A stretch of DNA of 64,000 bases from Alphaproteobacteria bacterium (GTDB lineage: Bacteria; Pseudomonadota; Alphaproteobacteria; Rs-D84). The notes beneath the pieces are model-generated. The model searched no databases. It was not told where the DNA came from and worked only from the letters and a program-made list of their open reading frames with translations. The translations under genes and the position numbers were made by a program. Of this stretch, positions 2,047 to 58,277 are shown in pieces; positions within the stretch are counted from its first letter, which is position 1, and every line of letters begins with the position of its first letter. The stretch is taken from the NCBI GenBank assembly GCA_017471445.1, contig JAFUTJ010000008.1, positions 48,382-112,381 of the forward strand, written 5' to 3'.

Positions 2047-4488
2047 CTATGCCACATACTGATACCTGTTCAGGTATGCCCCGAAAAGCGCGTCTTTCTT
2101 GGCATCAAACCGCTTTTGCGCGCGCTTGGCCGTTTGTGGCACCCACGAATACATCCGACCGGTATGACTGTCACGCCCAGATTCCAAGAAATCCCAATAC
2201 GCCATCAACTCTTGATATTTATCTTTGTGATTATCGTCCCATTTTGCAATTTCTTCATCACGCGCATTAATGTGGTTCTGTAATTCATTAATACGGTCAT
2301 GCGCCGTTTTCCATTCGTTCAGGCGACTTTCGGTCCGATTATTACGCGCGACAACATTGTTATATGTGCGCTCGGCACGGTCATATTGGGCGACTTCGTT
2401 TTGCCATATATTATTCAACCAATTGGGATTATTTATAATGTTATCGTAATCCCGTTGGGTCTGCATATTTTGTGCCGTATTTTCTGTCAAGGCGCGTTCT
2501 ATTTCCGCCTGTTGTTGAACCAACGGCATCAGGCGTGCCTGTTTTTCAACATCAGGCATTGTCGTATCGGCCAGAATTGCCGTCTGGGCCGCCTTGATAT
2601 TATTAAGACTATCATTCAAATCTGTGGCAGATTGCCCCAACTGCGCCAATTCATCTCTTAATGCCTGTTCTCTATCAACATTTTCCTTTGCAATCTGATA
2701 TTGCGGACTGTTTCTTTTTCGCTCTAGCCTGTCGTGGCGACGTTTCTGCGATGCGCGGGCCGCTTCTAAATTTGCCATGTGCGAATCATAATTTGTTTCG
2801 TTGATTTGGTTATGTGGCGCAAACCTGCGATTCAAGTTATCAATCGTCCGGCGGTCATCATCAATAACAGCTTGGTCGGCGGTATTCGCCATATCCCTGC
2901 GCATGGTGGCCGCGGCCAAATCTGCCGCGTTTTGTGTTTCCCACGCCTGCTGTGCGGTTTTAATATCGTATTTTTTCCCGGAACGATTACCGTGGAATCT
3001 GCTGCCTGCTTTGCGAATGGCGTTCCCGGCAAATGCAACGCCATAACCAATACCACGAAATGCGGCCTTGATACTTTTATCCAATGCACGCGTTACAAAT
3101 TGAACACCCTCGTTTTTATTCCAGGATAATTTACTATCAGAAAACAGTGAAAAATCCTTGAATTCTTTATCAAACGCGTCCATAACTTTGCTGGTTAAAT
3201 TACCGTATTTTATGACCGATAAAACTTCCATTGCGGCCTTGGCCTCTTTATCTTTACCTTCGGCCACCGCAGATTTAATCAATTCTGCAACAACCGCCCG
3301 CATTTGCCGACCGTGTGACATTGCCTTGTCAAATGCCTTGGGCATTGTATCTTTCAGTTCTGTCATTTTCTTAACGAACCAATCAAAATGGTCGGTGGCG
3401 GTTGGCGATTTATACTGCAATTTTTCTTTTATCTTGGACGCATTTTCTAACACAGCCCCCAATCCATCGGTCGGTTTAATCTTGGCACTGGACAATGCCT
3501 TGACTATATTTTTTGCACTATCAGAAAAATACAGACGGTCACCTTTGAACCGGGTGTATTTCGCAAACACTTCGTCATACGTCTTACCGACCCATTCTTG
3601 AACGCGCTGGGATAAAGTCAAACTATCTTCGCGTTTTGGCGGCACATAGTCTTTACTGTTCTTGTCATCATACGCGATATTTTCTTTGGATTTATCAAAA
3701 TATTTGGTGATTTTACCACGATCATACTGCGAAAACACATCCCGTACCTTGGCAACAGAATGCAATTTGCGCATCAAGTGTTGTATTTCACCACGGAACA
3801 GCCCCATACGCGTGTCATCAATTGTGGTATCGTCAAAATTATTTACAATATCATACAGATTCACATGTCCCAGATGTTGAAACTGGGGGTCATATGTTGT
3901 CAAACCCGATATAACATTCGCAACAGCTTTCAAGTTTTCTGCGAACGTTGGGTCTGTGTTATATTTTTTCTTTCCCGGCTCAATACCCTTTTTCAAGTCC
4001 GAAAAAGAGAAACCTTCTTTCCAAACCCCATAACCTTGTAATGCGGTTTCTAATTCTGGGTGCGCATCCAACAACGTACGCAACGTGGCAATTTGTGCTT
4101 CGGCGGGGGCACTGGCATGGGCATTATCAAACATCCGCCCCACACCAAAATATTCATCCAAGAATCCGTTTGCCTTGTCGTTTTTCTTAAAGTCATCACG
4201 ACTGGCCGCCATGGCACGAAACGCATCTTGAAAGGCTTTAAATAACTTTTCCGCTTCGTCTTTGGGCAAAACGGTTTCGTCGCTGGCATCTGGTAAATCG
4301 TTCTGAACATATTTACCGTTCGCATCTTGGTGCATTAATTCATCACGCCAACTTTTCATATTGCCGCGAAAATCGCCCTTGTTACCGTTTGCCTTGACGT
4401 ATGCATCATACTGGGCACGAACTTCGGCCGGAACATCATTGAACCGCAATTGCTTGAAATATAATTCTAAAAATTCTTTCATGTTCAT
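2047..4488 (-). CDS. large hypothetical protein (about 813 aa), charged, predicted coiled-coil-rich C-terminal half
   Basis: Long uninterrupted ORF. The preferred start is MNMKEF at 4488, preceded by AAGGAGG. I recognise no family motif. Confidence 0.7.
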   Translation of the reverse strand: MNMKEFLELYFKQLRFNDVPAEVRAQYDAYVKANGNKGDFRGNMKSWRDELMHQDANGKYVQNDLPDASDETVLPKDEAEKLFKAFQDAFRAMAASRDDFKKNDKANGFLDEYFGVGRMFDNAHASAPAEAQIATLRTLLDAHPELETALQGYGVWKEGFSFSDLKKGIEPGKKKYNTDPTFAENLKAVANVISGLTTYDPQFQHLGHVNLYDIVNNFDDTTIDDTRMGLFRGEIQHLMRKLHSVAKVRDVFSQYDRGKITKYFDKSKENIAYDDKNSKDYVPPKREDSLTLSQRVQEWVGKTYDEVFAKYTRFKGDRLYFSDSAKNIVKALSSAKIKPTDGLGAVLENASKIKEKLQYKSPTATDHFDWFVKKMTELKDTMPKAFDKAMSHGRQMRAVVAELIKSAVAEGKDKEAKAAMEVLSVIKYGNLTSKVMDAFDKEFKDFSLFSDSKLSWNKNEGVQFVTRALDKSIKAAFRGIGYGVAFAGNAIRKAGSRFHGNRSGKKYDIKTAQQAWETQNAADLAAATMRRDMANTADQAVIDDDRRTIDNLNRRFAPHNQINETNYDSHMANLEAARASQKRRHDRLERKRNSPQYQIAKENVDREQALRDELAQLGQSATDLNDSLNNIKAAQTAILADTTMPDVEKQARLMPLVQQQAEIERALTENTAQNMQTQRDYDNIINNPNWLNNIWQNEVAQYDRAERTYNNVVARNNRTESRLNEWKTAHDRINELQNHINARDEEIAKWDDNHKDKYQELMAYWDFLESGRDSHTGRMYSWVPQTAKRAQKRFDAKKDALFGAYLNRYQYVA

Positions 4489-16642: not shown

Positions 16643-16671
16643 TTGATTTTTTACCTGTTTTATGATATAAT
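16643..16671 (+). promoter_or_regulatory. sigma70-like promoter with extended -10 upstream of the toxin gene
   Basis: TTGATT (16643-16648), a 17-nt spacer ending in TGa, then TATAAT (16666-16671). Confidence 0.5.
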
Positions 16672-16795
16672 ATCTCTCAATTAGAGGCGCGTTATCGCGC
16701 TATTTTTTATTGTTATCGCCCGCATAATAGCCATAAAATTTTATAATTTTCGGCTCCAGATGTGTGGGCTTTTTTATTTAACAAAGGAGTTTTAT

Positions 16796-17854
16796 ATGGA
16801 TACAAATTGGAACGGTGCATATTGGGACGAAAACGGGGTTTTACATATTGATGTTTATGCAAATCCACCGAAAATCAAACCAGAAATAACAACTGATGAA
16901 ATTGATGAAGATTGGGAAGATGATTTTGATGAAGAATATGATGAAGATGAAGTAGAACACACTTATGCTACCATAGATTGCGGTGGTGATTGCGGTGGCT
17001 GTGTGGCTTTGATTGTTGACGACGAAGTCGTGTCTGGGCCACCGTTTCACCCCAACTGTCGTTGTGTGTTAAGTATGGAAGATATAGAAAATGCACACTA
17101 TAACGATTCTCATTTGCATCAAGATGTTGCAAGCGATAGAAGTGTGGATACTCGCGATATCAAATGGTTAAAAAGGGCTTTGGTCAAACTTGGCTACTAT
17201 ACCCCTGATTCCAGAGCGGGCGAATCCGATAAAAAATTAAACCAATACCCAAATCAAAAATTATTTGACGCAATAGAAAATTTTAGAATAGAAAATAAAA
17301 TTAAAGAAAATGGTGCTGTAAAACCCGGTCATTGGACAGAAGTAAAAATAAATGAAAAATTAAAACAACAACAAGAACCTTATAGATATAAAGGCAATAC
17401 TTTTGATGCGAAAATAGATGTAAAAGATGGTCAATACGCTGTATTTGATGGGCAAAAATTAACCGTTTATGATGGTGATAATACAATTTTATTTTGGAAT
17501 GCTGTATCTGGGAAAGACGGATTCCAAACACCAGAATATCAAGATCAAAAAAACAAAGGTCCTATTCCAAAAGGCACATACGTTGCCCGACAAAGTGAAT
17601 TACAACATCGTTCTGATTATAATATTATAAAACGATACACATCTTGGCCAGGCGGCGAATCTAGTTGGGGTAATTCGCGAGTATGGTTAGAACCTTCCAA
17701 AGAAACAAATACTTTTGGAAGAGATGGTTTTTCTATTCATGGCGGCACGACACCTGGCTCTGCTGGGTGCATAGATTTAACATCTGGTATGGACGGTTTT
17801 GCCGATTGGTTCAAAAATAATGGACATGATTTAATTATCAATGTAGAATATTAA
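16796..17854 (+). CDS. polymorphic-toxin-like protein: MuF-type C-x2-C...PPFHPNCRC motif + peptidoglycan-binding-like repeat + C-terminal Tlde1/DUF2778 (L,D-transpeptidase-fold) toxin domain
   Basis: RBS AAGGAG before the ATG at 16796. Acidic N-terminus, then DCGGDCGGC...SGPPFHPNCRCV (phage MuF/SPP1 gp7 signature). IKWLKRALVKLGYYTPD is PG_binding_1-like. KNKGPIPKGTY...GRDGFSIHGGTTPGSAGCIDL matches the DUF2778/Tlde1 pattern. Confidence 0.7.
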   Translation: MDTNWNGAYWDENGVLHIDVYANPPKIKPEITTDEIDEDWEDDFDEEYDEDEVEHTYATIDCGGDCGGCVALIVDDEVVSGPPFHPNCRCVLSMEDIENAHYNDSHLHQDVASDRSVDTRDIKWLKRALVKLGYYTPDSRAGESDKKLNQYPNQKLFDAIENFRIENKIKENGAVKPGHWTEVKINEKLKQQQEPYRYKGNTFDAKIDVKDGQYAVFDGQKLTVYDGDNTILFWNAVSGKDGFQTPEYQDQKNKGPIPKGTYVARQSELQHRSDYNIIKRYTSWPGGESSWGNSRVWLEPSKETNTFGRDGFSIHGGTTPGSAGCIDLTSGMDGFADWFKNNGHDLIINVEY

Positions 17855-17856
17855 AC

Positions 17857-18198
17857 ATGAGACAAAAAATGTATCTTTTTATGTATATAATTGCCGGATT
17901 TTTATTCGGCACTTTATATACTTTTCTGTGTGATTTAGCTTACTTTAATAGAATAGCAAAATATGAAAGCATTTGGGCAAACATATATCCCCACATGAAC
18001 GGAAATCAACAACAGGTTTGGATGGCAAATAATGATATTTTTTGCATATTTATAATTCTAGGATTTTTAATGTGGATTGGTTATGTTCTTGTACCAATTT
18101 ATAGAAAAAAAGTATTTTTTATTCCATTATTGGGCGTGCCAATATTTTTTATAATACAATTTATGTTGTGTTCGGTTTTAAGAATAATTTGCTTGTAG
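17857..18198 (+). CDS. small 3-TM membrane protein (candidate immunity protein for the upstream toxin)
   Basis: 113-aa ORF starting 2 nt after the toxin stop, with three hydrophobic segments. The function is inferred only from position. Confidence 0.5.
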   Translation: MRQKMYLFMYIIAGFLFGTLYTFLCDLAYFNRIAKYESIWANIYPHMNGNQQQVWMANNDIFCIFIILGFLMWIGYVLVPIYRKKVFFIPLLGVPIFFIIQFMLCSVLRIICL

Positions 18199-18270: not shown

Positions 18271-19300
18271 CTATAAAACTTCCCAATGACCGCCACAATC
18301 TGGACCGACACGACGGATTTTTCCGGACTCTTTCAATTTATTCAGGTTCCATTTAACCCCGTCAGTGGTAAGCCCTGTTACACTTGCCAAGTCATCGCGG
18401 GTGGCATTTGGTTTCTTTGCCAAAATATCCAAAATTTTCTGGGTAGTTTTCTGGGTAGTTTTTGTACCGGTTTTCTTCACTTGCATTTCGCGATTATCCA
18501 GACGATTATTCTCGCCCAGCAATAAATTACCAAAGAACTTATTCAAATATTCCATCGTATATGGGATGTTTTTATCCAGGTTCTGATAGTTCGCCCGAAC
18601 CAGCGCATTTCTGAAATATTTCGCGTGTTTTTCAAACATATCGTTATTGGTATGCAGTCCCAATGTTTCCAGATATTTAATTATAAATACACCCGTAGCG
18701 CGAGTATTGCCCTCCGCAAAGGGATGTATCTGCCATATCCCAGACATAAACTTTTCAATATGTTCTATGGCGTTGACGTTTGGTTAAATTTTTATAATCA
18801 AACTTTTTCTCTTGCTCAAAATCATATTCCAACGTTTCAGCAATACTATCAGCACGACCATAGATAATGGTGTCACCGTTCAAGATATATTCTTTCTTGG
18901 TAATGTTATATGTGCGGAATTTACCCGCAATTTTTTTATCTAAAATACCGTCAAACAGTGCCCCATGAATTGATTTATATTCCGCTGGACTAAATTTAAA
19001 TGTCTTTTCACTTAATAATTTGGCAATACGCGCAGATACCTTATCTGCCTCTTGTTCATCTTGTTCTTTTTGGGTGGATGCAACATTTTCATGATAATAG
19101 CGATTTATTTCGCGTTCCGCATCATAGACCGAGATTTTCCCTTCTATGTTTTCTTTGGCAATATTTATCAGATATTTAGATGGCGTTAGATTATCAACCA
19201 TCTGCAGACCAATGGCCACACCCCAATTTTCTGCGCGGATACGTTTATCTGGTTCACCTTGTTTTTTATATTCGCTAAAATACTGTTTTTGCCCTGCCAT
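18271..19300 (-). pseudogene. Fic-family protein (AMPylase type) with C-terminal wHTH, split by a frameshift
   Basis: Two adjacent ORFs in different frames (18755-19300 is the N-terminal part; 18271-18747 carries HPFAEGNTRA). The frame-shifted reading ...AIEHIEKFMSGIWQIHPF bridges them. Confidence 0.8.
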
Positions 19301-29422: not shown

Positions 29423-31862
29423 ATGGCAAAGAAAGTATTATTTCCGGCACGGCCGAATTTGAATCCAACTATCTATGCTTATTGCGACACCAATCCGCAA
29501 TATGCGGGTATGTTAAAGGTTGGTTACACCACAAAAAACGCAGTTGATCGTGTTGCCAAACAGTACCCTATATTGAAACCTGGGGAAAAGCCATACAAGA
29601 TTGTAATTGATGAACCGGCCATTCGTGAAGATGGGTCTGTGTTTACCGACAAAGACGTCCATCGTTTGTTACGCAATCATGGCTTTATTCAGTTGCATGA
29701 CAAAGACAATAAATTGACCGAATGGTTTAAATGTTCCGAAGCTGATGTTATGGCGGCAATCGTTGCTTTGCGACATGGCGATTCTTTGGAAGTCCAGCGC
29801 ACCGAAGATTTTGGTATGCGACCAGAACAACAGGAAGCTGTTGATTAAACCATCGCTTATTTCAAGGCATATGCGAAAGAAAATCCGGGTAAAACATCTC
29901 ACTTTTTGTGGAACGCCAAAATGCGTTTTGGAAAAACTTTCACTGCATATCAATTGGTCAAACGCATGGGATGGGGCAAGATTTTAGTTTTGACTTTCAA
30001 ACCGGCTGTTAGCAGGCGTGGGAATCTGACCTGAATACCCACAAGGATTTTGAGGGCTGGCAATTTGTTTCCAAGAAAGAAAATCGACCGAACAATTTAT
30101 GGAATCTGTAAAACATTTGGATTTAAATAGTCCTATCGTTTGTTTCGGTTCTTTCCAAGATTATCTGGGCAAAAACGAAGCCGGCGGTATTAAAGCACAA
30201 AACGAGTGGGTTCATGGAACAAATTGGGATTGCGTAATCTTTGATGAATATCATTATGGCGCATGGCGTGAAAATGCAAAGGACCTGTTTGAAAATGAAT
30301 CAAAGGCAGAACAGAAAGCCATAAATAGCGAAGCAATTGATTATTTTGATGAATCTAATATGCCAATCACCACATCGCATTATTTGTACTTGTCTGGAAC
30401 ACCTTTCCGTGCAATAAACAGTGGTGAATTCATTGAAGAACAGATTTACAACTGGACATATTCCGATGAACAACGCGCCAAGGAAGAGTGGCCCGATCCA
30501 GAAACAAACCCTTATGCTGCGTTACCCCGTATGGTAATGATGACATATCAATTGCCAGAATCTATCCGTAATGTTGCATTGGGTGGTGAATTCGATGAAT
30601 TTGACCTGAATACCTTCTTTGAAGCCGAAGGTGAAGGTAAAAACGCCAAATTCAAATATGAAAATGAAGTACAAAAATGGTTGGACCTTATCCGTGGCAA
30701 TTTGATGGAAACGACAGTTGATAATTTGAAAATGGGTGCCAAGAAGCCGCCTATGCCCTTTGCCGACACCCGTTTATTGGGCATATTGTCACACACATTC
30801 TGGTTCTTGCCGTCTGTTGCCGCATGTCACGCTATGGCAAACTTGCTGAAACGCCGTCAAAATGTGTTCTATCATGACTATAAGATAATTATTGCCGCCG
30901 GAACCGAAGCCGGCATCGGCGAAAAAGCATTATTGCCAGTATTTGAAACGATGGACAATCCATTGGAAACAAAAACAATCACTTTATCATGTGGAAAATT
31001 GACCACGGGCGTGTCTGTAAAACCTTGGTCTGGTATCTTTATGTTAAGAAATCTTAAGACACCGGGAACGTATTTTCAGGCCGCTTTTCGCGTGCAAACA
31101 CCATGGGTTATCAAAAACCCAGATGGCGCACATCCAAATACCACGCAAATAATGAAGGAAGAATGCTATATTTTCGACTTTGCCCCGGATCGTGCGTTGC
31201 GACAAATAACGGACTACAGTTGCCGTTTGAACGTTGAAGAAAGCGATCCTGAAAAGAAAGTTGCCGAATTTATCAACTTCTTACCAGTACTGGCCTATGA
31301 CGGCAGTGCTATGCGTCAAGTAAATGCTGGTGAAATACTGGATATGGCAATGAGTGGTACCAGCGCAACATTGTTGGCACGCCGTTGGGAAAGTGCTTTG
31401 TTGGTCAATGTGGATAATGCCACCCTGATGCGTTTGATATCTAATGAAAAGGCAATGAAAGCCCTGATGAGTATCGAAGGTTTCCGCAGTTTGAATCAGG
31501 ATTTTGAAACCATTATCAACAAATCCAACGCAATCAAAGAAAAGAAACAAAAGGCCAATGAACGCGAACTGACCAAACAAGAAAAGAAAGAATTGTCCGA
31601 TTATCGGGAACGTACATTAAAAGACGTTATCACGCAATTGGAACCGGGACTATTCAAAAAGGTTACCGGTCTGGATGTGAAAGATTTTGAATTGTTGGTA
31701 AGCATCGGGGTATTTAACGATGCGTTGATGAATGATGCCGTATATAAATTCAAACGTTATGAAGATGCAAGTTTGGAATACTCCGGTATCAATAAACACA
31801 AAGGTGGTCCTGTCCCACGAAGATTACGAGATGATGTAAGGATTAAAAATCTAATGGATTGA
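29423..31862 (+). pseudogene. GIY-YIG/T5orf172-like nuclease fused to DEAH-helicase restriction subunit, disrupted (one in-frame TAA, two frameshifts)
   Basis: N-terminus IYAYCDTNPQYAGMLKVGYTT. TAA at 29846-29848 sits inside EQQEAVD*TIAYF...WNAKMRFGKTFTAYQL (P-loop). Frame changes occur near 30015 and 30090. Then FDEYHYGAW and YLSGTPFRAI in the 587-aa ORF. Confidence 0.75.
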
Positions 31863-34344
31863 ACTCTGTGCCTTTGGCCGTTTGTTGGGGCTTTCTAACA
31901 GTTTCTGTTTTCTCTGTTGCTGTTAACATAGCCTGCACGTTCGCCATATTAAAACCATCTACAATGTTCATAATATGTAATGCCATTGATGCGATTTTCT
32001 TCAAATCCTGTTCTGAAATGTGAAAATTTTCAGATATCTGCTGAGGATTCCCATGCGAATGCGGGTCAGTAACTTTAACAATATAAGCTAACTTATATTT
32101 TAAATCTTGTTTCGTCTTTTCATCGAGCCCATCCAATTTGTCTATCTTATCGACAAACGTATTTAGACCAGGACTATTATTTGGTCTACCATTATCCGCA
32201 ATAATAGCAAATTTAAAAGACAAAAACGTTTCCAAGACCCTCCTTATGTAATTTGGTAAATATCTTTTGGCTGATATGTAATCGTTATTTACACCTTCTG
32301 CGTATTCAATGATCGATTTTAGCATATAAAAATAAGGGGTCTCAAAATTTCTTAACTCTGGTGGCAACTCGATAAGTTTATTATTGTCCAAAAATAAACA
32401 GTTAGCATTTCCAGCGTAAAATGAATTAAAAAATTTCAAGAATAAAAAGTTATGACTTAATACTATCAACTGTTTTATATCTTTAAATGTTTCCCTTATT
32501 AAATAGGCTGTACTATAAAGTCTATTTTCGTCTAAACTAGAAATAGGATCATCTATAATTACAATTGCTTCTGCAGCTTTATTAGAAGATTTTATTTCAT
32601 TCTCATATTTACTCAGAAAATAAGAGAACGCAAGTGCTGTTTTTTCACCTTCACTTAAAGTATTTTTTAATTTGTTTTTTGTAACCATTTCAGGAATATA
32701 ACTTATAACAATATTTTCGTCCGGAGCGTCTTCGTTTATATCTACACTGAAGTGTTCTATCCCCATTAACCCCAAAAACTTGCCTATTCCCTTAGATTCT
32801 GATTTTATCTGTTTCAGTTTTTCTGTTAATGCTTTTTTATAAAACGATAGTGTTTTATCGTCATTATCATCAGCCTTTGATATTTCGTTTAAAATTTTCA
32901 TATTTTTGCTAAATTTCTTAATTCCGCCATCTTTTATGCTCTGATCAAAATCCACTAAAATTAAGTCATTATAAATAGCTCGCATTTCTTTTTCTATGGC
33001 ATTCGTGTTCAATTTTTGCGATTGAAGACTTGATAATAACGCAGATTTTATTTTATCTAAATTGTCAATATAATTTTCGTAACAAACAGAGTCAAATTTA
33101 TATTTCGGCATAAAGCTAACTTGAACGTACACGTTTGACAATTTGGCATCAATGCTCGCTGACAACTCAGTAAAAAAATTTTCGATTTCTTCAAAATCTA
33201 TGTTTGGTATAGAGTATTCTATTTGGATATGACTATACTTTTGTTTTTGTTTCTCCAATATTATAAAATTATTTTTGTTGATTTTGATATCATTGACAAA
33301 ACTCTCTACTTGGTTCTTTGTTGTTTTTAGTTCTTCAATAAAAATTTCATATTCCATATCAAAATATCTATCAAAATCTTGCAGTATAGATTCAATAGAA
33401 TCTGATATATCATTGTTGCAAATTGGGCAATATATTTTTTGATAGTTTTTTTTGACTCGTTTTAGTATATTTTTACCAAATCTAAACCACGGTTCTGCTT
33501 TATTTTTATCGGACTCATCTACTAACACATTTTTTATTTCATAAATTCTATTTTGCAATACCTGTTTTGATATTTGTTGAATTGTTTTATTTAATAGTGA
33601 CTTTATGTGCTCAATATTTATATTCGTCCTTTCGAACCCCAATTTTGCAAGTTCTTCACAATCATCTGCCATATCTGCCTGTCGCTTGCTTAACTCATAT
33701 TTTATTTTTAAAGAATTTATCTCGTTTTCTAATTCTTCGTATGTTTTTGTTGGGACCGTATACACTTGTTCCAATTTGGGAACAGATAACCGTTTATTTG
33801 CATCTGTGAGATTTTTACCAAACTTTCCGCTATATTTGTTAGTTATATTTTTTATATTTTCTTGTAATGAAATATTTTCTTTTTTTAATTCATCACTTTC
33901 TCGTTCGAGTGCATTTATTTTTTCTGTAATTTTTACGATATCATCATTCTTAATATTAGCGTTACCTGTTTTGGCAAATTTTTTAAGATTTCCTTTTGTT
34001 CCATCAAATACATGAGAAAATACAAAATTTTGGTTAAAAACAAAAAGATTTTTATCATGAACTCGATTTGCTGGATATTTTAAGATTCCATCTTGAGTAT
34101 TGATTTCAACATAAGCCGTGTCATCTATCTTTATATCGTTAAAAATTTCTTTCTTTTCATCTTCGCTTATAAATAAATTACTAGAAAACAACGATAAAAT
34201 ATTTGATAAAGTGGTTTTTCCAGAACCATTTGCTCCTAATATAATATTACAATTTTGATTAGGAACACTATATACAAAATCTTTCTCTTGCTGAAAATCT
34301 GTAAATTTACCAAATTTCGCACATTTATGGATGTTTTTTATCAT
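31843..34344 (-). CDS. AAA_13-type ATPase resembling RloC/PrrC anticodon nucleases (Walker A, long coiled-coil insert with CxxC, Walker B, C-terminal R-x3-E...H region)
   Basis: ILGANGSGKTT; CPICNND about 300 aa in; VIIDDPISSLDENR; LSHNFLF; C-terminal YIRRVLETF...DPHSHGN. Confidence 0.7.
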   Translation of the reverse strand: MIKNIHKCAKFGKFTDFQQEKDFVYSVPNQNCNIILGANGSGKTTLSNILSLFSSNLFISEDEKKEIFNDIKIDDTAYVEINTQDGILKYPANRVHDKNLFVFNQNFVFSHVFDGTKGNLKKFAKTGNANIKNDDIVKITEKINALERESDELKKENISLQENIKNITNKYSGKFGKNLTDANKRLSVPKLEQVYTVPTKTYEELENEINSLKIKYELSKRQADMADDCEELAKLGFERTNINIEHIKSLLNKTIQQISKQVLQNRIYEIKNVLVDESDKNKAEPWFRFGKNILKRVKKNYQKIYCPICNNDISDSIESILQDFDRYFDMEYEIFIEELKTTKNQVESFVNDIKINKNNFIILEKQKQKYSHIQIEYSIPNIDFEEIENFFTELSASIDAKLSNVYVQVSFMPKYKFDSVCYENYIDNLDKIKSALLSSLQSQKLNTNAIEKEMRAIYNDLILVDFDQSIKDGGIKKFSKNMKILNEISKADDNDDKTLSFYKKALTEKLKQIKSESKGIGKFLGLMGIEHFSVDINEDAPDENIVISYIPEMVTKNKLKNTLSEGEKTALAFSYFLSKYENEIKSSNKAAEAIVIIDDPISSLDENRLYSTAYLIRETFKDIKQLIVLSHNFLFLKFFNSFYAGNANCLFLDNNKLIELPPELRNFETPYFYMLKSIIEYAEGVNNDYISAKRYLPNYIRRVLETFLSFKFAIIADNGRPNNSPGLNTFVDKIDKLDGLDEKTKQDLKYKLAYIVKVTDPHSHGNPQQISENFHISEQDLKKIASMALHIMNIVDGFNMANVQAMLTATEKTETVRKPQQTAKGTEFNPLDF

Positions 34345-34383
34345 TGTTTTTAGCCTGTATAATAAATTTAATCAGCACATTCA

Positions 34384-35142
34384 CTAAGACAATGCCGTAT
34401 TTATTTTATTTGGATCAATAGGTATACCCGCTGCTTGCATATGTTTTATGATAGAATTACCTGCTTCTTTTATAACAGAATCCTTGAAAGGCACATACAA
34501 CAAACCACTTACATCAGATGGATCTTCTATATCACCTTTGCGTAATATCGCTACTTTATGGCGTCCTATAGAACCAATTAAAATACCCATTTCTAAAATT
34601 ACATTTTGCCGTGCTCGTGACCGCAAGTTGCAATTATTTTGTTCATAATCTTTTTTGCTACACCCAACATCATCTGGGGTCATTAAAACAATTCCAAACG
34701 CTGAATCATAGACAATTCTTTGTTCCAAAGCTTCTATTATAGTCTTTCCTCCCTCAACATTATTTTTCAATATATACGGTTCAAGCCCCAATCGCATAAT
34801 AAACAACTCTAACTCTCGCAAGGATGTATCATCGTGTCCGTGAACAATAAAAATTTTCTTACTTGCAATTGATGGAACAAAATTTGATTGGGGAGCCTGC
34901 ATAACATTGCCACAAATATTATTTAATGCATTAAAGAAAGCTTCTTCAAACTTGTGTTTGTTTTCTCCGTCTGGACCTTGAATATTTATTGTTTTACTTG
35001 AATCCCACCAATTTAAACATATTCCCGTTTCGGTTCTAAATTGTTTTTGTCCGCTAGATAATTCTTTCCATTCTCCCTTAAAGCCGGTATGATTAACCTT
35101 GTCTTGTAATTCTTGATATGTCCCTGTAAATTTATTTGCCAT
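34384..35142 (-). CDS. TIR-like nucleotide-binding protein (COG4271 / Cap12-PycTIR-type TIR-like domain) with unknown ~95-aa N-terminal domain
   Basis: KIFIVHGHDDTSLRELELFI...FGIVLMTPDDVG...RSRARQNVILEMGILIGSIGRHKVAIL...DPSDVSGLLYVPF matches the bacterial TIR-like family pattern. Confidence 0.7.
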   Translation of the reverse strand: MANKFTGTYQELQDKVNHTGFKGEWKELSSGQKQFRTETGICLNWWDSSKTINIQGPDGENKHKFEEAFFNALNNICGNVMQAPQSNFVPSIASKKIFIVHGHDDTSLRELELFIMRLGLEPYILKNNVEGGKTIIEALEQRIVYDSAFGIVLMTPDDVGCSKKDYEQNNCNLRSRARQNVILEMGILIGSIGRHKVAILRKGDIEDPSDVSGLLYVPFKDSVIKEAGNSIIKHMQAAGIPIDPNKINTALS

Positions 35143-40486: not shown

Positions 40487-42979
40487 ATGACATTTGATAA
40501 ATTACGGGATGATAACGAAGCGTACGCACGCTTGAAAATTAATCAGAAGTTGATTGACGCTGGTTGGTTTTTGACCGATACACCGGAACACAAACGCAAT
40601 GTGAATGTTGAACAAAAGGTTGATTCTGGGTTCGCTGACTATGAAATGCTGGATTCGAACGGCTTTCCTTTGTGTGTTATTGAAGCAAAAAAGCCATCAA
40701 TCAACCCATTAAGTGCCAAAGAACAAGCGCACAGGTATGCAACCGAACACAATATCCGGTTTGTTATTTTATCAAATGGTGAAATTTATTATTTATGGGA
40801 CATAAAATCAGGTAATCCACAAATCATAACCCAAATACCAACCCAGGAATCTTTGGAAATGCGTTTCGGGTTTAATCCGCAAACCAAAGATATAATGAAA
40901 GAAAACATTATTCCTGAATATGTCGCATTACAGAAGAATTCGCGTTTGTTGGATACACCCGAATATCAAGACCCAAAGACGCGCGGTGCGTATTGTTGGA
41001 ATAATGGATTGCGTATATTGCGTGATTATCAACTTGGTGCTATTCGTGCAGTGCAACAAGCAATCGCCGATGGTAAAGACAGATTTTTGATTGAAATGGC
41101 GACTGGATTGGGTAAAACATTGACAGCGGGTGCAATAATTCAAATGTTATTACGCACCGGACACGCGCATAGAGTTTTATTCCTTGTTGACCGTATTGAA
41201 TTGGAACAGCAAGCGTGGAAAAACTTTAATGATTATCTGTGCGATTTCATAACGGTTATTTATAAAGAAAATACAAAGGATTGGCACAAAGCGGATATTA
41301 TTGTTTCAACCATCCAAACATTGATGGCGAGTGATAAATATAAACATTTTTCACCAACTGATTTTGATTTTATAATATCAGACGAAGCACACCGTTCAAT
41401 CGGTGGTAACAGCCGCGCAGTATTTGAATATTTTATCGGTTATAAATTGGGATTAACCGCAACACCACGCGATTATATTAAAAATGTGGATGTTGATAAA
41501 ATCAAAGTCAATGACCCAAAAGCGCTTGAACGCAGATTATTATTGGATACATATAAAACATTTGGTTGTGAAAGCGGTGAACCAACATACAAATACACAA
41601 TGATTGATGGTATTAAAAACGGTTATTTAGTTGCCCCGATGGCTATTGACGCACGCACAGATATAACCACAGAGATGTTATCCGAAAAAGGTTATCATGC
41701 GATTGGTGTTGACGACAATGGTGAGGATGCCGAAGCCGATGTTGTTGTAAAAGATTTTGAAAAACGCTTTTTCAATGAAAATATAAACGCGGTATTTTGC
41801 AAAGCATTCCTGGAAAATGCAGAACGCGACCCAATCAGTGGCGAAATTGGTAAAACATTGGTATTTTGCGTCAGTCAATCACACGCTGCAAAGATTACCC
41901 AGATGTTGAACGAATTGGCTATGCAGGCATTCCCAGGTAAATACAACAGTGATTTTGCTGTCCAGGTTACCAGCACGGTCCAAAACGCACAGCAAATGAC
42001 AAATCAGTTTATGACTGATAATAATAATCTGGGTGGTAAATCAACATTTTTAGAAGGATATGATACATCAAAAACGCGCGTATGTGTAACCGTTGGAATG
42101 ATGACGACGGGTTATGATTGCAGCGATTTATTAAACATCGTATTTATGCGACCTGTGTTTTCACCGACTGATTTTGTGCAAATGAAGGGACGCGGAACCC
42201 GTAAATATACATTCAAATATGTTGACCAAGACAAGAACGAAATCAAGAAAGACAAAGAACGGTTTAAGATGTTTGATTTCTTTGGTAACTGTGAATATTT
42301 TGAAGAAAAATTTGATTACGGACAACAATTAAAATTACCGCCATTGTCCAAAGGAGTTGACGTTGGAACGCGGTGTGGCGAATCACGAACATTTACAACA
42401 TTGACATCCGAAGAGATAACCAAACTGATTCAAATGGAAACGCTTAACATACCAGACAATGGTATGCGTATTGACCGCGAATTCTGGGGCAATTTCCAAA
42501 AGACAATCTGTGCGGATATTGATATTAAAAATGCGGTTAAAAACAGTGATTGGGATTATGCGGTTGCTTTGGTTAAAGATAAATACGAAAACAAACCTGA
42601 ATTGTATCCCAACCTTGAAAAAATTAAAAAAGCGACAAAATTGGACCGCCGTTTATCTTGGCGCGAAATATTGGAACACATATTCGGTCTGCTGCCCCGG
42701 TTTAAGACACGCGATGAAATGTTAGAGGATGAATGTGATAAATACATATCCATTGTTAAACCTGACGCTGAAATTGTGCCGTCCATTAAAAATTTTATAA
42801 AATTATATGTTACGGATAATACATTTCGTGATATAATAGAAAAACAGGAATATCCGCGACTTAACGCTGAAATTCCTGGATTCAGTATGATGGATTTAAA
42901 GTTGATGGGTAAAGACATCCGCGAAAATTTACCGGAATACATCAAAGAAAACATTGTTTTGAATAAATATATGGGGTAG
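40487..42979 (+). CDS. hsdR: Type I restriction enzyme R subunit (HsdR-like, PD-(D/E)xK N-domain + DEAH helicase)
   Basis: FADYEMLD...CVIEAKK nuclease-like N-terminus, then MATGLGKT, IISDEAHRS, TATPR and MKGRGTR motifs. Confidence 0.85.
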   Translation: MTFDKLRDDNEAYARLKINQKLIDAGWFLTDTPEHKRNVNVEQKVDSGFADYEMLDSNGFPLCVIEAKKPSINPLSAKEQAHRYATEHNIRFVILSNGEIYYLWDIKSGNPQIITQIPTQESLEMRFGFNPQTKDIMKENIIPEYVALQKNSRLLDTPEYQDPKTRGAYCWNNGLRILRDYQLGAIRAVQQAIADGKDRFLIEMATGLGKTLTAGAIIQMLLRTGHAHRVLFLVDRIELEQQAWKNFNDYLCDFITVIYKENTKDWHKADIIVSTIQTLMASDKYKHFSPTDFDFIISDEAHRSIGGNSRAVFEYFIGYKLGLTATPRDYIKNVDVDKIKVNDPKALERRLLLDTYKTFGCESGEPTYKYTMIDGIKNGYLVAPMAIDARTDITTEMLSEKGYHAIGVDDNGEDAEADVVVKDFEKRFFNENINAVFCKAFLENAERDPISGEIGKTLVFCVSQSHAAKITQMLNELAMQAFPGKYNSDFAVQVTSTVQNAQQMTNQFMTDNNNLGGKSTFLEGYDTSKTRVCVTVGMMTTGYDCSDLLNIVFMRPVFSPTDFVQMKGRGTRKYTFKYVDQDKNEIKKDKERFKMFDFFGNCEYFEEKFDYGQQLKLPPLSKGVDVGTRCGESRTFTTLTSEEITKLIQMETLNIPDNGMRIDREFWGNFQKTICADIDIKNAVKNSDWDYAVALVKDKYENKPELYPNLEKIKKATKLDRRLSWREILEHIFGLLPRFKTRDEMLEDECDKYISIVKPDAEIVPSIKNFIKLYVTDNTFRDIIEKQEYPRLNAEIPGFSMMDLKLMGKDIRENLPEYIKENIVLNKYMG

Positions 42980-42983
42980 CGAA

Positions 42984-44888
42984 ATGTTGGATTCCAGAAC
43001 AAAACAAACCATTGATAATGCCTGCGATACATTGGTGGGCAAAGTGCCAAGTCCACAGACACAGGTTGATATTATTACAACCGCGCTGATTTATAAATTC
43101 ATGGATGATATGGATTTGGATGGTTTGGAATTATCGGACAAGCGGACATTCTTTGTTGGTGATTTGGAACCATACGCATTTTCAACCATTGTTAACACCA
43201 AGGGTAACCAAGAACGGATGAACCTGTATTTAACTGGGCTTGAAAAGGTGCAGACCGCAAAATCGGTGCCTGAATTATTCCGTCGTATTTTCAAAGAAGC
43301 GATGATACCTTTTCGCGACCCGACAACATTTGCGTTATTTTTAAAGGAAATCAATGAATTAAAATATGACGATTCCGAAACATTGGGGGATGCATTTGAA
43401 TATTTATTGAATAAAATGGCAACCGCAAAGAATGCCGGACAATTCCGCACACCGCGCAATATAATTGATTTTATTGTTGATGTTGTTAAACCAACCAAAG
43501 ACGATACCATTTTGGACCCTGCGTGTGGGACGGCTGGATTTTTGATTTCCGCATATAAACACATCACATCGGGTGGTAAATTAACACCAGACGAATTAAA
43601 ACGGGTTACAAACAGCATTGTTGGATTAGATATTGACCCAACAATGGTAAAATTAAGTTTGGTTAACCTGTATCTGCATAAATTTGAACAACCAAACATT
43701 TATGAATATGATACATTGTCCAATGATACGCGTTGGGGTGACCGGTATGATGTTATTTTGGCGAACCCACCATTCATGACCCCAAAGGGTGGAATTACAC
43801 CACACAAACGCTTTGCAATCAATGCAAATCGCAGTGAAGTTTTGTTTGCAGATTATTTTATGGAACATTTGACTATCAATGGACGCGCGGGTTTTGTTGT
43901 TCCCGAAGGTATTATATTCCAAACCGCCAATGCATATAAGGAATTGCGTAAAATGATGCTGGATGGTTTTTTGTATGCGGTTGTATCATTACCATCTGGG
44001 GTGTTTAATCCATATGCCGGTGTAAAAACATCAATATTATTCTTTGACCGCGCATTTGCAAAAACCAATGACAATATATTATTTGTGCGTGTTGACAATG
44101 ATGGTTTTTCATTGGGTGCACAACGCACACCAATCAAACAAAATGATTTACCCGAAGCGTTAAAGATTATTAATGAATACCGCGACGGTAAAGATGTATC
44201 GGGTTATGAACGTGCAATGGTTGTATCCAAAGAACGTATTGCCGAAAATAATTATGATTTAACCGCTGCGAAATACATCGAAAAAGAAACCCGAGAATGT
44301 AAATATGAAATGGTTAAACTTGAAGATGTCACAGAAATTATAACGAAAGGAACAACCCCAACAACACTCGGATACCAATTTGTTGATGATGGGGTTAATT
44401 TTATAAAAATTGAATCTATAAATGATTCTGGGGTTTTTATTCCTAGTAAATTTCAGCACATAACCAACGATTGCAACAATAAATTGAAGCGTTCACAATT
44501 ACAAGAAAATGATATTTTATTTTCTATCGCAGGTGCTTTTGGGCGCGTTGGTGTTGTAAATAAAGACATTTTACCAGCCAACACAAACCAAGCATTAGCA
44601 ATAATACGATTAAAAAATCAAATTGTTTTGCCAAAGTATATCGCAACAGTATTAAAATCGTCTTTCATTTTGGATAAAATTTCAGCATTAAAGGTTGGTG
44701 TTGCACAATTCAATATATCTTTGACACAAGTTGCGAATCTTGAAATCCCACTTCCACCGTTGGATGTGCAGCAACAGATTGTGGATGAAATTGAAAATAA
44801 ACAATCCGCAATCAACCATGCGCGTGAAATCATTAAAAATCTAGAGAGAGAGAGAGACAATATTTTGCCTGCCTTCTTGACGGCATAG
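42984..44888 (+). CDS. hsdM: Type I R-M methyltransferase fused to one HsdS target-recognition domain (HsdM-halfS)
   Basis: FRTPRNII, DPACGTAGFL and ANPPFMTP (NPPF motif), then the end of the M part (NNYDLTAAKYI). This is followed by an HsdS-like TRD (VKLEDVTEIITKGTTP...) and a conserved helix (LPPLDVQQQIVDEIE). Confidence 0.85.
   Translation: MLDSRTKQTIDNACDTLVGKVPSPQTQVDIITTALIYKFMDDMDLDGLELSDKRTFFVGDLEPYAFSTIVNTKGNQERMNLYLTGLEKVQTAKSVPELFRRIFKEAMIPFRDPTTFALFLKEINELKYDDSETLGDAFEYLLNKMATAKNAGQFRTPRNIIDFIVDVVKPTKDDTILDPACGTAGFLISAYKHITSGGKLTPDELKRVTNSIVGLDIDPTMVKLSLVNLYLHKFEQPNIYEYDTLSNDTRWGDRYDVILANPPFMTPKGGITPHKRFAINANRSEVLFADYFMEHLTINGRAGFVVPEGIIFQTANAYKELRKMMLDGFLYAVVSLPSGVFNPYAGVKTSILFFDRAFAKTNDNILFVRVDNDGFSLGAQRTPIKQNDLPEALKIINEYRDGKDVSGYERAMVVSKERIAENNYDLTAAKYIEKETRECKYEMVKLEDVTEIITKGTTPTTLGYQFVDDGVNFIKIESINDSGVFIPSKFQHITNDCNNKLKRSQLQENDILFSIAGAFGRVGVVNKDILPANTNQALAIIRLKNQIVLPKYIATVLKSSFILDKISALKVGVAQFNISLTQVANLEIPLPPLDVQQQIVDEIENKQSAINHAREIIKNLERERDNILPAFLTA
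44842..44856 (+). repeat. (AG)7 dinucleotide repeat at the junction between HsdS TRD1/central helix and TRD2
   Basis: Read directly: t-agagagagagagaga-c at 44842-44856, encoding ..LERERD... Confidence 0.95.
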
Positions 44889-44905
44889 ATTACAACGAAG
44901 TTAAA

Positions 44906-45478
44906 TTGGGGGATGAAAAATATTTTAATATTGAATCTGGTGGCACCCCATTAACCACAAATGATGATTTTTGGAATGGTGGCATAAATTGGATAAGTTT
45001 GATGGATGTTCCCAACGATGTTGATGTTAATATAATCAACAGCACAACAAAGACAATATCGGAACAAGGTCTAAAACATTCATCAGCAAAATTATTACCA
45101 GTTGATACAATTGTGGTGTCAAGCAGAGCCACTATCGGCAGGGTTGGACTTGCAAAAATCCCACTAACCACAAATCAGGGTTTTAAGAATATAATCATAT
45201 TAGATAATAATGCTATTGAACCGAAATTTGTCGCTTTTGCAATGTTGCAGAAAAAGCAAGAAATGGAACAAAACGCATCTGGTGGAACATTCAAAGAAAT
45301 ATCAAAAACAAATTTTGCTAAACTATCTATTCCTTTACCATCCATTGACGACCAAAGACGCATTGTTGCAAAATTGGAAGCGGAACAGGAAATTATTGAC
45401 GCAAACAAACGCTTGATTGATTTAATGCAAGATAAAATCAACCAGGTTATTAACCGTATTTATAAATGTGATTTATAG
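44906..45478 (+). CDS. hsdS: HsdS second half (TRD2 + distal conserved helix), out of frame with the upstream M-S ORF
   Basis: LGDEKYFNIESGGTP...TTNQGFKNII...LSIPLPSIDDQRRIVAKLE are typical HsdS motifs. Only a TTG start and no obvious RBS. The frame stays open upstream through DGIDYNEVK. Confidence 0.75.
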   Translation: MGDEKYFNIESGGTPLTTNDDFWNGGINWISLMDVPNDVDVNIINSTTKTISEQGLKHSSAKLLPVDTIVVSSRATIGRVGLAKIPLTTNQGFKNIIILDNNAIEPKFVAFAMLQKKQEMEQNASGGTFKEISKTNFAKLSIPLPSIDDQRRIVAKLEAEQEIIDANKRLIDLMQDKINQVINRIYKCDL

Positions 45479-46695: not shown

Positions 46696-47751
46696 TTATT
46701 TTGTTGTGTAGAAAGTTGTGCGTCCGTTACCATGTTTAACCAAGCGGCCACTTTCTGTCAAATTACGCAAAATATTCTTTACTGTGCTAAGTTTTATGTT
46801 CAGATATCCTGATAATTCCCCAGACGACCATTCTGGACGTGCTTCAAATGCACTTAAAATATTTAATGCATTACGGGATAATGAAGTATCTCCACCACTA
46901 ACCCTTTCCAGTTTGGATTCCAAATGACGTTTTTGTTTCTGCAATGATGTGATAAAGAAATCCAACCATGGTACATAATCAACAACATCTGTCCATATTG
47001 TCTTTTGGGTTTCATGCAACGAACGATAATACATTCCCTTGCTTGCTTCGATTATCGATTCCATTGATGAATATGGCACATATGAATACCCATTTTGCAA
47101 CATCAACATTGTTGTTAACGCACGCGACATACGACCATTACCATCTTTGAACGGATGGATTGACAAGAAATGCACAATAAATACACCAATAACAACAATC
47201 GGATGCAAATATTTTTCTTTCAGGTGTAAATTAGTCCAATCTAACAATTCGCCTATCAATCTTGGTGTATCAAACGGTGTAGCAGTTTCAAATATTGAAC
47301 CTATTTCATTACCATTTACATCAAAAGCCGCAACACGATTAGATGTTTTTTTGTATTCACCACGATGTTCAATATCCTTGGTTGAATGTCCCATCAAGAT
47401 TTTATGCAACTGTTTGATATAATTTTCGTTCAAAGGGATAACCGAATAATCATTGAAAATACGTTCAATCAAATCTGCATATCCGGCGACTTCTTCTTCG
47501 TCACGACTTTTAAAAGATGTCTGTTTGATGTTTTTGAACAGATTTTCAATTTCAGCATCAGACATCTTGTTGCCTTCAATACGATTTGAAGAACCGACAG
47601 ATTCAATCGTTGCTACCATTTTCATTGCACGCAAAACCTCTGGTCGAACTTTGATGGCCCCACTGTCCCAATTTGCCTTGAACATATCCAATTCTGCGAT
47701 TTTATTCAGCATTTCTGGTGTAATTTTGATATTATTTATGTTCGGCATCAT
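46696..47751 (-). CDS. Fic-family protein (intact) with C-terminal winged-helix domain
   Basis: Canonical HPFKDGNGRMSRAL motif. 351 aa. C-terminal ...LSTVKNILRNLTESGRLVKHGNGRTTFY. Confidence 0.9.
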   Translation of the reverse strand: MMPNINNIKITPEMLNKIAELDMFKANWDSGAIKVRPEVLRAMKMVATIESVGSSNRIEGNKMSDAEIENLFKNIKQTSFKSRDEEEVAGYADLIERIFNDYSVIPLNENYIKQLHKILMGHSTKDIEHRGEYKKTSNRVAAFDVNGNEIGSIFETATPFDTPRLIGELLDWTNLHLKEKYLHPIVVIGVFIVHFLSIHPFKDGNGRMSRALTTMLMLQNGYSYVPYSSMESIIEASKGMYYRSLHETQKTIWTDVVDYVPWLDFFITSLQKQKRHLESKLERVSGGDTSLSRNALNILSAFEARPEWSSGELSGYLNIKLSTVKNILRNLTESGRLVKHGNGRTTFYTTK

Positions 47752-57908: not shown

Positions 57909-58277
57909 AATTACTTCCTTGCATTTATTCACATTTTGCACAAAAGCATATAAAAGTTCAAGAATATTTATCAATTCAACAAGATGTTTTTCTTACAAAT
58001 GGCAAAAAACAACTATTTTTCCACATATAACATAATGGAATTGACCGTCCGCCACATCCATGAAAAAGTCAGATGTCAAACATACACGTAATGTTTCACC
58101 ACACTTAACCTTATATTTTTATGCCACGAATTCTATATATCCATGCATTTAGTGCCACATCATCGGCAAATTTATACCGTTATAAAATATTCGTAAATCA
58201 GGTATAATCTGACAATATAATACTATGAATTATTACCAACAATGTGATATAATCCTGTGGTACAAAGAGGAAATAAA

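Follow-up and report, generated by a model that had tools for sequence, protein, structure and literature searches.

A two-gene cassette of Candidatus Enterousia most likely encodes a cell-wall toxin and a candidate immunity protein

Two adjacent genes in a 64-kb stretch of alphaproteobacterial DNA (contig JAFUTJ010000008.1 of assembly GCA_017471445.1; "the window" below means this whole stretch) most likely form a two-gene cassette, made up of a cell-wall toxin and a candidate immunity gene, in Candidatus Enterousia, a gut bacterium with a 0.91-Mb genome. The first gene, on the forward strand at positions 16796 to 17854, is an open reading frame (ORF) without internal stop for a 352-amino-acid (aa) protein consisting of a short N-module, a peptidoglycan-binding-like linker, and a Tlde1 domain. 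The second (17857 to 18198, same strand) encodes a 113-aa protein with three transmembrane (TM) helices. We read the pair as the toxin and immunity genes of one cassette, belonging to a family of polymorphic effectors that target peptidoglycan, are built from exchangeable modules, and are not delivered by a type VI secretion system (T6SS), and from the comparative sequence evidence we would put the probability of this reading at about 72%.

A divergent Tlde1 domain

The catalytic domain, of the Tlde1 or L,D-transpeptidase fold, occupies residues 205 to 352 of the toxin (nucleotides [nt] 17408 to 17851). It scores 40.1 bits against Pfam Tlde1_dom (PF10908; curated cutoff, 30.1; E 5.9e-10; residues 236 to 340) and 35.3 bits against YkuD (PF03734; E 2e-8; residues 220 to 340), matches far above chance, and the Tlde1 profile reached 43.4 bits in a six-frame search of the genome. 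When an AlphaFold2 model built from 40 homologues (mean pLDDT, 77.9, with values of 87 to 95 across most of the C-terminal domain) was compared with the PDB by Foldseek, the best matches were the Tlde1a entries 7UMA, 7UO8, and 7UO3 (E of about 1e-6; TMt, 0.57 to 0.59), headed by 7UMA (E 7.5e-7; TMt, 0.58) and followed by Bdellovibrio Bd1075, YkuD, and mycobacterial L,D-transpeptidases (LdtMt2). The predicted catalytic pair, His315 (nt 17738 to 17740) and Cys325 (nt 17768 to 17770), is invariant in the 40 homologues, as are S322, G324, and I326. By profile and predicted fold, the C-terminal domain is a divergent member of the Tlde1 family, the identity that the original prediction had given it from short motifs.

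The closest known pair is Tlde1a and Tldi1, encoded with the SPI-6 T6SS of Salmonella Typhimurium, in which the catalytic motif of the toxin is given as HXX14-17-(S/T)HGCh, with H121, H129, and C131 (PMC9638812). The toxin in the window keeps the H-x9-C spacing of H121 and C131 and conserves the equivalents of W93, R99, R115, and S128, the target would presumably again be the stem peptides of periplasmic murein, and in both cases the immunity gene lies directly downstream. Overall identity, in contrast, is about 23%; the second motif histidine, H129, is replaced by Ala323, so that SHGC becomes SAGC, and Y119 by Ser313; and 200 aa have been added at the N terminus (a MuF remnant and a peptidoglycan-binding-like domain) in a genome that lacks a T6SS. 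An H129 variant of Tlde1a is reported to retain D-amino-acid exchange and to have lost much of its other activities (PMC9638812), and because the toxin has an alanine at that position, its chemistry may be a subset of that of Tlde1a. By analogy with Tlde1a biochemistry, the enzyme would act in the periplasm of a recipient cell by trimming the tetrapeptide stem as an L,D-carboxypeptidase, by swapping D-Ala4, or both, which would starve the wall of cross-linkable stems.

Searches with the toxin returned 407 homologues at E<=1e-3, and both genes of the cassette are conserved in dozens of genomes. The motifs from which the original prediction set out are all present in the translated sequence: CGGDCGGC at residues 62 to 69, PPFHPNCRC at 82 to 90, LKRALVKLGYYTPD at 125 to 138, GPIPKGTY at 255 to 262, and GRDGFSIHGGTTPGSAGCIDL at 308 to 328. 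So are an acidic N terminus, in which 16 of the 25 residues from 31 to 55 are acidic, and the 113-aa three-TM ORF 2 nt downstream: the toxin gene ends with TAA at 17852 to 17854, followed by AC and then by the next ATG at 17857.

A partner gene that follows the catalytic domain

The 113-aa protein matched no Pfam or NCBIfam family. It has a predicted periplasmic loop (residues 28 to 60), and D26, K35, and W40 are conserved. It is 38% identical to the product of the gene 3' of a Tlde1 toxin with a long MuF-type N terminus (P0123), and all 21 of the 21 members of the three-TM family stand behind Tlde1 modules. Partner genes were surveyed at 35 loci from species genomes, found with a profile of the N-module, and at 10 further loci found by exact-protein look-up; the 35 profile-found loci all belong to Candidatus Enterousia or to metagenome-assembled genomes of gut Alphaproteobacteria (sheep, goat, horse, deer, chicken, and human). 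Tlde1 modules are paired with three-TM proteins of 100 to 115 aa in two subfamilies (17 and 4 members), encoded in the same direction and starting anywhere from a 3-nt overlap to 18 nt past the stop. Class GH24-A is paired with a lipoprotein of 312 to 332 aa, whose convergent gene overlaps the toxin stop (7/7), class GH24-B with a codirectional lipoprotein of 113 to 129 aa (4/4), and GH108 and the remaining GH24 types with convergently encoded signal-peptide proteins of 134 to 158 aa. Across about 40 loci there was not one mismatch between partner and C-terminal class. The partners are all exported or membrane embedded, while a signal peptide is absent from the toxin in the window and from the other toxins of the family.

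Because the three-TM partner is found with Tlde1 behind either a short or a long N terminus, it tracks the catalytic domain and not the trafficking domain. The comparison of loci indicates that the 113-aa protein most likely behaves as the cognate immunity gene, which agrees with the role first proposed for it, and the family also occurs in islands that hold immunity genes only. As that proposal had also noted, it is unlike Tldi1, which is soluble and periplasmic, in being a three-TM membrane protein. It would be cotranscribed with the toxin and would use its loop of about 33 residues to neutralize incoming toxin on the periplasmic side of the inner membrane.

Three TM helices in about 100 aa is also the format of class I holins, and a peptidoglycan-binding domain joined to a GH24 or GH108 catalytic domain is the layout of many Gram-negative endolysins. 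The two genes could on those grounds be a lysis or secretion cassette, in which a holin-like pore lets an endolysin-type enzyme through to the wall of the producing cell, either to release particles or as holin-dependent export. We find this scarcely credible, as the three-TM gene tracks the Tlde1 module rather than the whole protein and is found, among the classes, only with Tlde1, whereas GH24 and GH108 versions pair with lipoproteins or signal-peptide proteins. Three-TM genes also occur in arrays and in the absence of any toxin, and the cassette is accessory where the phage-like particle of these bacteria (see below) is universal.

Shuffled modules, orphan tips, and immunity islands

Among the homologues, the N-terminal 55% of the toxin is found again, 73 to 87% identical, preceding lysozyme domains of GH24 (PF00959) or GH108 (PF05838), and the C-terminal 47 to 53% recurs at about 60 to 67% identity behind a longer N-domain (P0070, P0114, and others). 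The modules being shuffled are a short or a long MuF-type N-module, a linker that is present or absent, and a C terminus that is Tlde1, one of several GH24 types, or GH108. A search with residues 1 to 110 returned 80 clusters, and wherever the C terminus was recognizable it was Tlde1, GH24, or GH108; none of the 80 carried a nuclease, ADP-ribosyltransferase (ART), or other cytoplasm-acting C terminus.

This architecture also bears on whether the toxins are type IV secretion system (T4SS) substrates, like those of the Xanthomonas X-T4SS, which injects peptidoglycan hydrolases into rival bacteria. A weak VirB8 match does lie 6 kb from a GH108 member of the family. Signals for type IV and type I secretion are C-terminal, however, and here the conserved part is N-terminal while the C-terminal ends differ wholly between classes (...DLIINVEY, ...KMFIDAK, and ...KRTKAY), which makes type IV secretion highly unlikely; the Pfam search also found no XVIPCD-like domain.

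Orphan modules accompany several of the relatives. At one locus (L051; G053:C4:60300-65240), a full toxin with a long MuF domain and Tlde1 is followed by a three-TM gene, an orphan Tlde1 tip that begins at the conserved junction VSGRPGYQS, another three-TM gene, a second orphan tip, a membrane protein, a three-TM gene like P0002, and a fragment consisting of a MuF tail and GH108. At another (L052), a GH24-A toxin and its lipoprotein precede an orphan lipoprotein of the GH24-B type, two membrane proteins (one P0002-like), and a stand-alone GH24. A third (L053; G163:C10:21500-27000) has three different membrane immunity-type genes in tandem after prfB, at 2659 to 3857, in a genome with no detectable Tlde1 domain. 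Of 201 genomes sampled from the order Rs-D84, 53 had the N-module, 72 had Tlde1, and 47 had the three-TM family; six genomes have the three-TM family without Tlde1, two of these at contig edges. Cassettes sit in at least six different chromosomal contexts, and the one in the window is single and has no orphan modules.

Orphan tips, poly-immunity islands, and a patchy distribution are hallmarks of polymorphic toxins, and because of them we expect the toxins to arrive from other cells. The murein-only C termini, class-matched partners, orphan-tip arrays, and immunity-only islands together lead to the conclusion that these genes, as judged from sequence, make up a system of polymorphic toxins and immunity proteins found only in small-genome gut Alphaproteobacteria like Enterousia (order Rs-D84). 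From the occurrence of immunity genes, the target species would be Enterousia itself, a lineage described as genome-reduced and as probably living as a symbiont or parasite (PMC12306168). A literature search found no paper on toxins of Enterousia.

Several smaller features of these loci deserve mention. The array of L051 includes an additional membrane protein family (128 aa, with a CxxWGxxxxCPWGSE motif) that recurs in L052 and L053 and may be another immunity class. Stand-alone GH24 ORFs of 167 to 197 aa (L027, 7515 to 8108; L041, 7566 to 8078; L003, 12470 to 12973; L052, 4045 to 4623) lie from a few hundred bases to about 1.4 kb 3' of toxin cassettes, or about 3 kb in L052, and may be orphan warhead cassettes open to recombination. 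P0067 (L037, 6001 to 6741), named "peptidoglycan-binding protein" in its public record, and P0085 are internally deleted, with an in-frame fusion of the N-module and some of the linker to the C-terminal ~90 aa of Tlde1; with a three-TM gene still 3' of the P0067 gene, these are probably decaying toxins whose immunity gene has been retained. A "Bacteriophage sp." record with bacterial content (L049, MT836786.1; DnaE, a MEMO-like protein, and a HAD phosphatase) encodes a 244-aa Tlde1-like protein without the MuF motif, followed by two multi-TM ORFs, and on account of this gene order membrane partners of Tlde1-like toxins may occur outside Enterousia.

An N-terminal module reduced to the end of MuF

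The short N-module spans residues 1 to 100 (nt 16796 to 17095) and is supported by weak Pfam and TIGRFAM matches, by hhalign, and by conservation in the 40 homologues. It begins with a strand region in which W5, W10, G14, L16, and Y21 are conserved, continues with an acidic disordered linker (residues 26 to 54), and ends in a Cys/His knuckle, C62-x3-C66-x2-C69...H85-x2-C88-x-C90 (nt 16979 to 17065), whose residues are invariant. According to the original prediction, this region was the carrier domain of phage MuF toxins, and that part of the proposal is only partly borne out. The toxin itself reaches 13.1 bits against PF04233 Phage_Mu_F (cutoff, 29.6; E 0.16; profile positions 91 to 111 of 112 only) and 13.3 bits against TIGR01641 (cutoff, 39.65; E 0.081), and its gene is neither in a prophage nor behind a portal gene. 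Its sister P0114, which has the same Tlde1 module behind a longer N-domain, passes the MuF cutoff (31.9 bits versus 29.6; profile positions 57 to 111), and hhalign of the short against the long MuF-type N-domain aligned 32 columns around the knuckle (86.7%; E 4e-6). We take the knuckle to match the terminal part of MuF, which is here reduced to this Cys/His motif, with only the last ~30 residues remaining. A wider correspondence drawn by eye, which would equate the entire short module with the C-terminal half of the long N-domain, was not established, as hhalign covered the 32 columns only.

An exhaustive HMMER search found the short module (residues 1 to 110) in 17 clusters among 1.84 billion representatives, so it appears private to the lineage, and a PDB sequence search with N-module profiles gave no match. 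The sole distant HMMER match, P0130, is an unrelated Cys-rich repeat protein and was set aside, and for that reason no bridge to canonical MuF emerges. We suggest that the module, as a truncated MuF head-protein domain made up of the knuckle and the acidic linker, serves in trafficking.

Between the N-module and Tlde1 lies a three-helix linker resembling PG_binding_1 (residues 117 to 190; nt 17144 to 17365), which would keep the toxin on murein. In the toxin it is below threshold (E 0.1 for Pfam PG_binding_1 and 0.14 for PG_binding_2), but the relative P0113 exceeds the PG_binding_1 cutoff (28.4 bits versus 23), and in the model helices 119 to 131, 154 to 166, and 180 to 191 form a three-helix bundle with pLDDT values of 80 to 90. 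The suggestion of a peptidoglycan-binding-like repeat was in this sense a good one.

Delivery without a type VI secretion system

The genome of 0.91 Mb, in 23 contigs and 88% complete, gave no match at E<=1 to Hcp (PF05638) or TssC (PF05943), and neither a T6SS gene nor a phage structural gene was found in the 64-kb window. Both absences had already been noted for the window, and the first extends to the whole assembly. The second does not: at a distance of 89 kb from the toxin, the same contig carries a T7-like capsid, portal, and terminase cluster (L013; G000:C19:~154000-166000). This cluster had escaped the original prediction, as had the GH24 and GH108 versions with their partners and the leader described below. 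The cluster encodes a T7-type portal, a terminase split around dnaB, tail tube proteins A and B, a major head protein, and a T7 scaffold (PF05396; 38 bits), with weak matches to a gp14-like protein and a SleB-type hydrolase; it also contains a gene for an HC2 histone-like protein. No core proteins like gp15 or gp16 were found in it. T7-type is the sole portal type found in the genome, which has no SPP1-, Mu-, or HK97-type portal, and the portal is present in 186 of the 201 genomes of the order.

Since MuF proteins are head proteins that bind the portal (PMC5576092; PMC3482391), the T7-like particle is the obvious candidate carrier. The Tlde1 fold is not foreign to virions, either, since phages have stand-alone Tlde1-fold proteins, among them BFVD matches of 124 to 144 aa (TMt, 0.70 to 0.71) and gp41 of the Bcep22-like podovirus JC1, encoded just before the terminase gene (PMC9144972). 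A fusion of MuF to Tlde1 was absent from 50,697 phage records, the two matches being unannotated fecal contigs, one of them the MT836786.1 record with bacterial content described above. Our preferred but tentative guess is that the MuF remnant loads the toxin into a domesticated T7-like particle, whose ejection would release it into the recipient's envelope. More speculatively still, the dispersed cassettes could be the interchangeable payload of the order's T7-like particle, so that Enterousia would run a "MuF phage-capsid-like" delivery system of the kind predicted in 2012 and never demonstrated. Capsid genes would then be chromosomally fixed and MuF-tagged murein warheads scattered, with a tandem-terminator leader (see below) as the switch, and class-specific periplasmic or membrane immunity proteins would set compatibility groups among strains.

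A number of observations weigh against this picture, some against the cassette as we read it and others against the particle as its carrier. Given Ala323 and Ser313, the activity of the enzyme may differ from that of Tlde1a, and one would not usually expect a soluble periplasmic enzyme to be countered by a three-TM protein with so short a periplasmic loop. The MuF match of the toxin is below threshold and covers about 20 profile positions, and even in the long relatives it is confined to the last half of the profile. No particle gene was found within about 6 kb of a toxin at any of the 45 loci, and at only one (L006) does the toxin come within about 9 kb of the edge of the particle cluster. 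When 15 proteins of the particle region were compared with the 45 loci by tblastn, the only matches were LipB/p138, about 9 kb away in L006, and a TyrRS adjoining the toxin in L038, where no portal lies beside the TyrRS. Because the portal is near universal and the N-module patchy, their co-occurrence is uninformative. The cluster already has its own weak matches to a SleB-type hydrolase and a gp14-like protein, and the source organism is uncultured. We know of no T7-like phage that uses MuF proteins. Classical muf genes, finally, lie directly 3' of the portal gene in prophages (PMC5576092).

Toxins with a capsid-type scaffold might instead be penetration enzymes of a T7-like, gene transfer agent (GTA)-like particle, that is, ejected internal proteins that open the murein for DNA entry, with the partners acting in exclusion or self-protection. 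The functional parallel would be T7 gp16, which carries a lytic transglycosylase domain at its N terminus. Every C terminus in the family cleaves or edits murein, a peptidoglycan-binding domain is present, and the particle cluster has no large core proteins gp15 and gp16; virion-borne lysozymes and peptidases that aid injection are well known (PMC5512222), and stand-alone Tlde1-fold phage proteins offer a further parallel (PMC9144972). We nonetheless consider this quite unlikely. With the particle in 186 genomes but the N-module in 53 and Tlde1 in 72, the toxin is not an essential part of it, and an enzyme that helps DNA in would have no use for a cognate inhibitor, whereas one accompanies every catalytic class here; the orphan-tip arrays and the islands of immunity genes alone point the same way.

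The distance between toxin and particle genes would be no obstacle if the toxin were a diffusible bacteriocin of the pesticin or colicin M type, released by lysis or in vesicles and taken up through a surface receptor on other Enterousia, with the N-module crossing the outer membrane and the capsid uninvolved. The toxin pesticin has a lysozyme fold and is countered by an immunity protein in the periplasm, and the convergent orientation of immunity genes is known for colicin M and pore formers; several partner genes here likewise run toward the toxin gene and extend across its stop, and the GH24-A relative P0061 weakly matches Pfam Pesticin (PF16754; E 0.0018, below the cutoff). Weighing on the other side, the genome encodes no TonB-dependent receptor (PF00593), the cassette has no lysis or release gene, and the N-terminal residues are predicted, at low model confidence, to be packed in a small beta domain, which leaves no free TonB or Tol box. 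The conserved Cys/His knuckle, moreover, is the terminal motif of MuF, and relatives exceed the Pfam MuF threshold. A bacteriocin is unlikely on this balance.

A leader with tandem terminator-like hairpins

Upstream of the toxin gene is a near-consensus promoter (16643 to 16671, forward strand), with a -35 element TTGATT, a 17-nt spacer, and an extended -10 element, TGATATAAT, found by a consensus scan (10/12 plus TG). The alignment of 22 leaders from different genomic contexts shows little or no variation in the TTGA and TGnTAtAAT columns. Hairpin 1 (16686 to 16711), GGCGCG-TTAT-CGCGCT followed by a T-run, resembles an intrinsic terminator and occurs in 22/22 leaders, its stems varying but remaining paired (GGCGCG/CGCGCT, GGCACA/TGTGCC, GACGGCA/TGCCGTC, and GGCGAC/GTCGCC). 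Hairpin 2 (16718 to 16779, folded with RNAfold) has an outer stem formed by GCCCGCATA (16718 to 16726) and TGTGTGGGC (16761 to 16769); in 20/22 relatives it is a simple CCCGC-loop-GCGGG with a T-run, while in the window and in L014 it holds an insert, here of 34 nt, that forms an inner stem, followed by TTTTTTATTT. A Shine-Dalgarno sequence, AAAGGAG (16783 to 16789), lies 6 nt 5' of the ATG and is conserved in all leaders. An ATG at 16760 was considered as the start and rejected, because every homologue begins at the MDTNW/MSDMW methionine behind this Shine-Dalgarno sequence and because 16761 to 16779 falls in the conserved leader hairpin and T-run.

The order of promoter, two hairpins, and Shine-Dalgarno sequence is common to the 22 aligned members, whatever their context or C-terminal class. 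Transcription from this promoter has to pass two terminator-like hairpins before it reaches the toxin gene, so the default state of the cassette is probably off, with antitermination or read-through turning it on. A genome scan for an extended -10 promoter, a hairpin with T-run, a Shine-Dalgarno sequence, and an ORF returned the toxin gene only; as a test of shared regulation, it found no leader of this type at the particle cluster. The leader matched no Rfam family.

Comparison with known toxin systems

To our knowledge, Tlde1 enzymes are known only as T6SS effectors, and MuF toxins only as prophage genes with cytoplasmic targets. The MuF toxins described by Jamet et al. in 2017 (PMC5576092) and by Zhang et al. 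in 2012 (PMC3482391), and exemplified by Apk2 and Bxa (PMC11699363), share with the family in the window a terminal P-x-HPNC-x-C, a constant N terminus with variable C-terminal toxin domains, and a small adjacent immunity ORF, and sister proteins of the toxin pass the MuF cutoff. They differ in that 96% of muf genes lie in prophages or their remnants (PMC5576092), whereas the gene in the window is outside a prophage, not after a portal, and 89 kb from the nearest one, in an alphaproteobacterial host whose genome measures about 0.9 Mb. They differ again in their warheads, which act on periplasmic murein in the family described here. Jamet et al. list nucleases, peptidases, ARTs, and RelA-like proteins and never mention peptidoglycan (PMC5576092); the passages found in Zhang et al. 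name no peptidoglycan-directed domain among MuF-linked toxins (PMC3482391); and Iyer et al. give, among wall-related domains, a MuF fusion only to a zeta-toxin-like kinase. On sequence grounds, the scaffold would work like that of MuF toxins, although the protein in the window falls outside MuF membership by threshold and by its prophage and portal context.

Pesticin with Pim and colicin M with Cmi resemble the family in pairing a toxin without a signal peptide, which attacks murein or its precursor from the periplasm, with an exported immunity protein; some partners are convergent, and a GH24-A relative matches Pesticin weakly. Unlike those systems, the cassette is chromosomal rather than plasmid borne, the genome has no TonB-dependent receptor, and the toxin has no recognizable TonB box and carries a MuF-type knuckle. 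Orphan cdiA-CT/cdiI modules, Rhs-CT arrays, and the poly-immunity islands of Bacteroidales likewise have counterparts here, in relatives with orphan tips and their own immunity genes and in genomes with immunity genes only, but involve other protein families and another delivery route. Ejected virion murein hydrolases, such as T7 gp16 and the polyvalent virion proteins (PMC5512222), also combine a capsid-associated scaffold with a wall-cutting domain, and the sole capsid system in this genome is T7-like; the toxin differs in being far from particle genes, accessory, and accompanied by class-specific inhibitor-like partners.

What is new is a MuF-derived scaffold that carries only periplasm-acting murein warheads, together with exported or membrane immunity and immunity islands without toxins. 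The biological role and delivery of MuF toxins are called unknown by their own authors (PMC11699363), and the family provides comparative evidence that proteins on a MuF-derived scaffold may get to the envelopes of other cells by a route other than a T6SS. Periplasmic warheads with exported immunity would make transfer of MuF-type toxins between cells experimentally approachable, and could offer a way into a domesticated phage particle used as a toxin gun in obligately partner-dependent gut bacteria. The membrane-embedded three-TM proteins are a new class of candidate Tlde1 immunity proteins, and the family further offers five or more unannotated candidate lysozyme-immunity families and a compact promoter plus two-terminator control element.

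Genomic surroundings

The window contains housekeeping genes up to fabI. A mobile and defense island of approximately 18200 to 61500 then extends between the toxin cassette and tgt/queA, with DUF5131, a serine resolvase, Eco57I-type methylases, T5orf172, a tyrosine integrase, and a large serine recombinase. It also holds an AAA_13 ATPase adjoining a CAP12/Pycsar-type TIR protein (31843 to 35142), a type I restriction-modification system (40487 to 45478), GmrSD (56700 to 57974), and several large ORFs without a Pfam match. Next to the cassette, on the reverse strand, is a Fic-family gene (18271 to 19300) with a frameshift near 18750, so that its N-terminal 181 aa (18755 to 19300) lie in another frame than the part at 18271 to 18747, which has the HPFAEGNTRATG motif and a winged-helix domain. 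The split reflects either decay to a pseudogene or a mistake in the assembly; another Fic gene, at 46696 to 47751 and also on the reverse strand, is intact.

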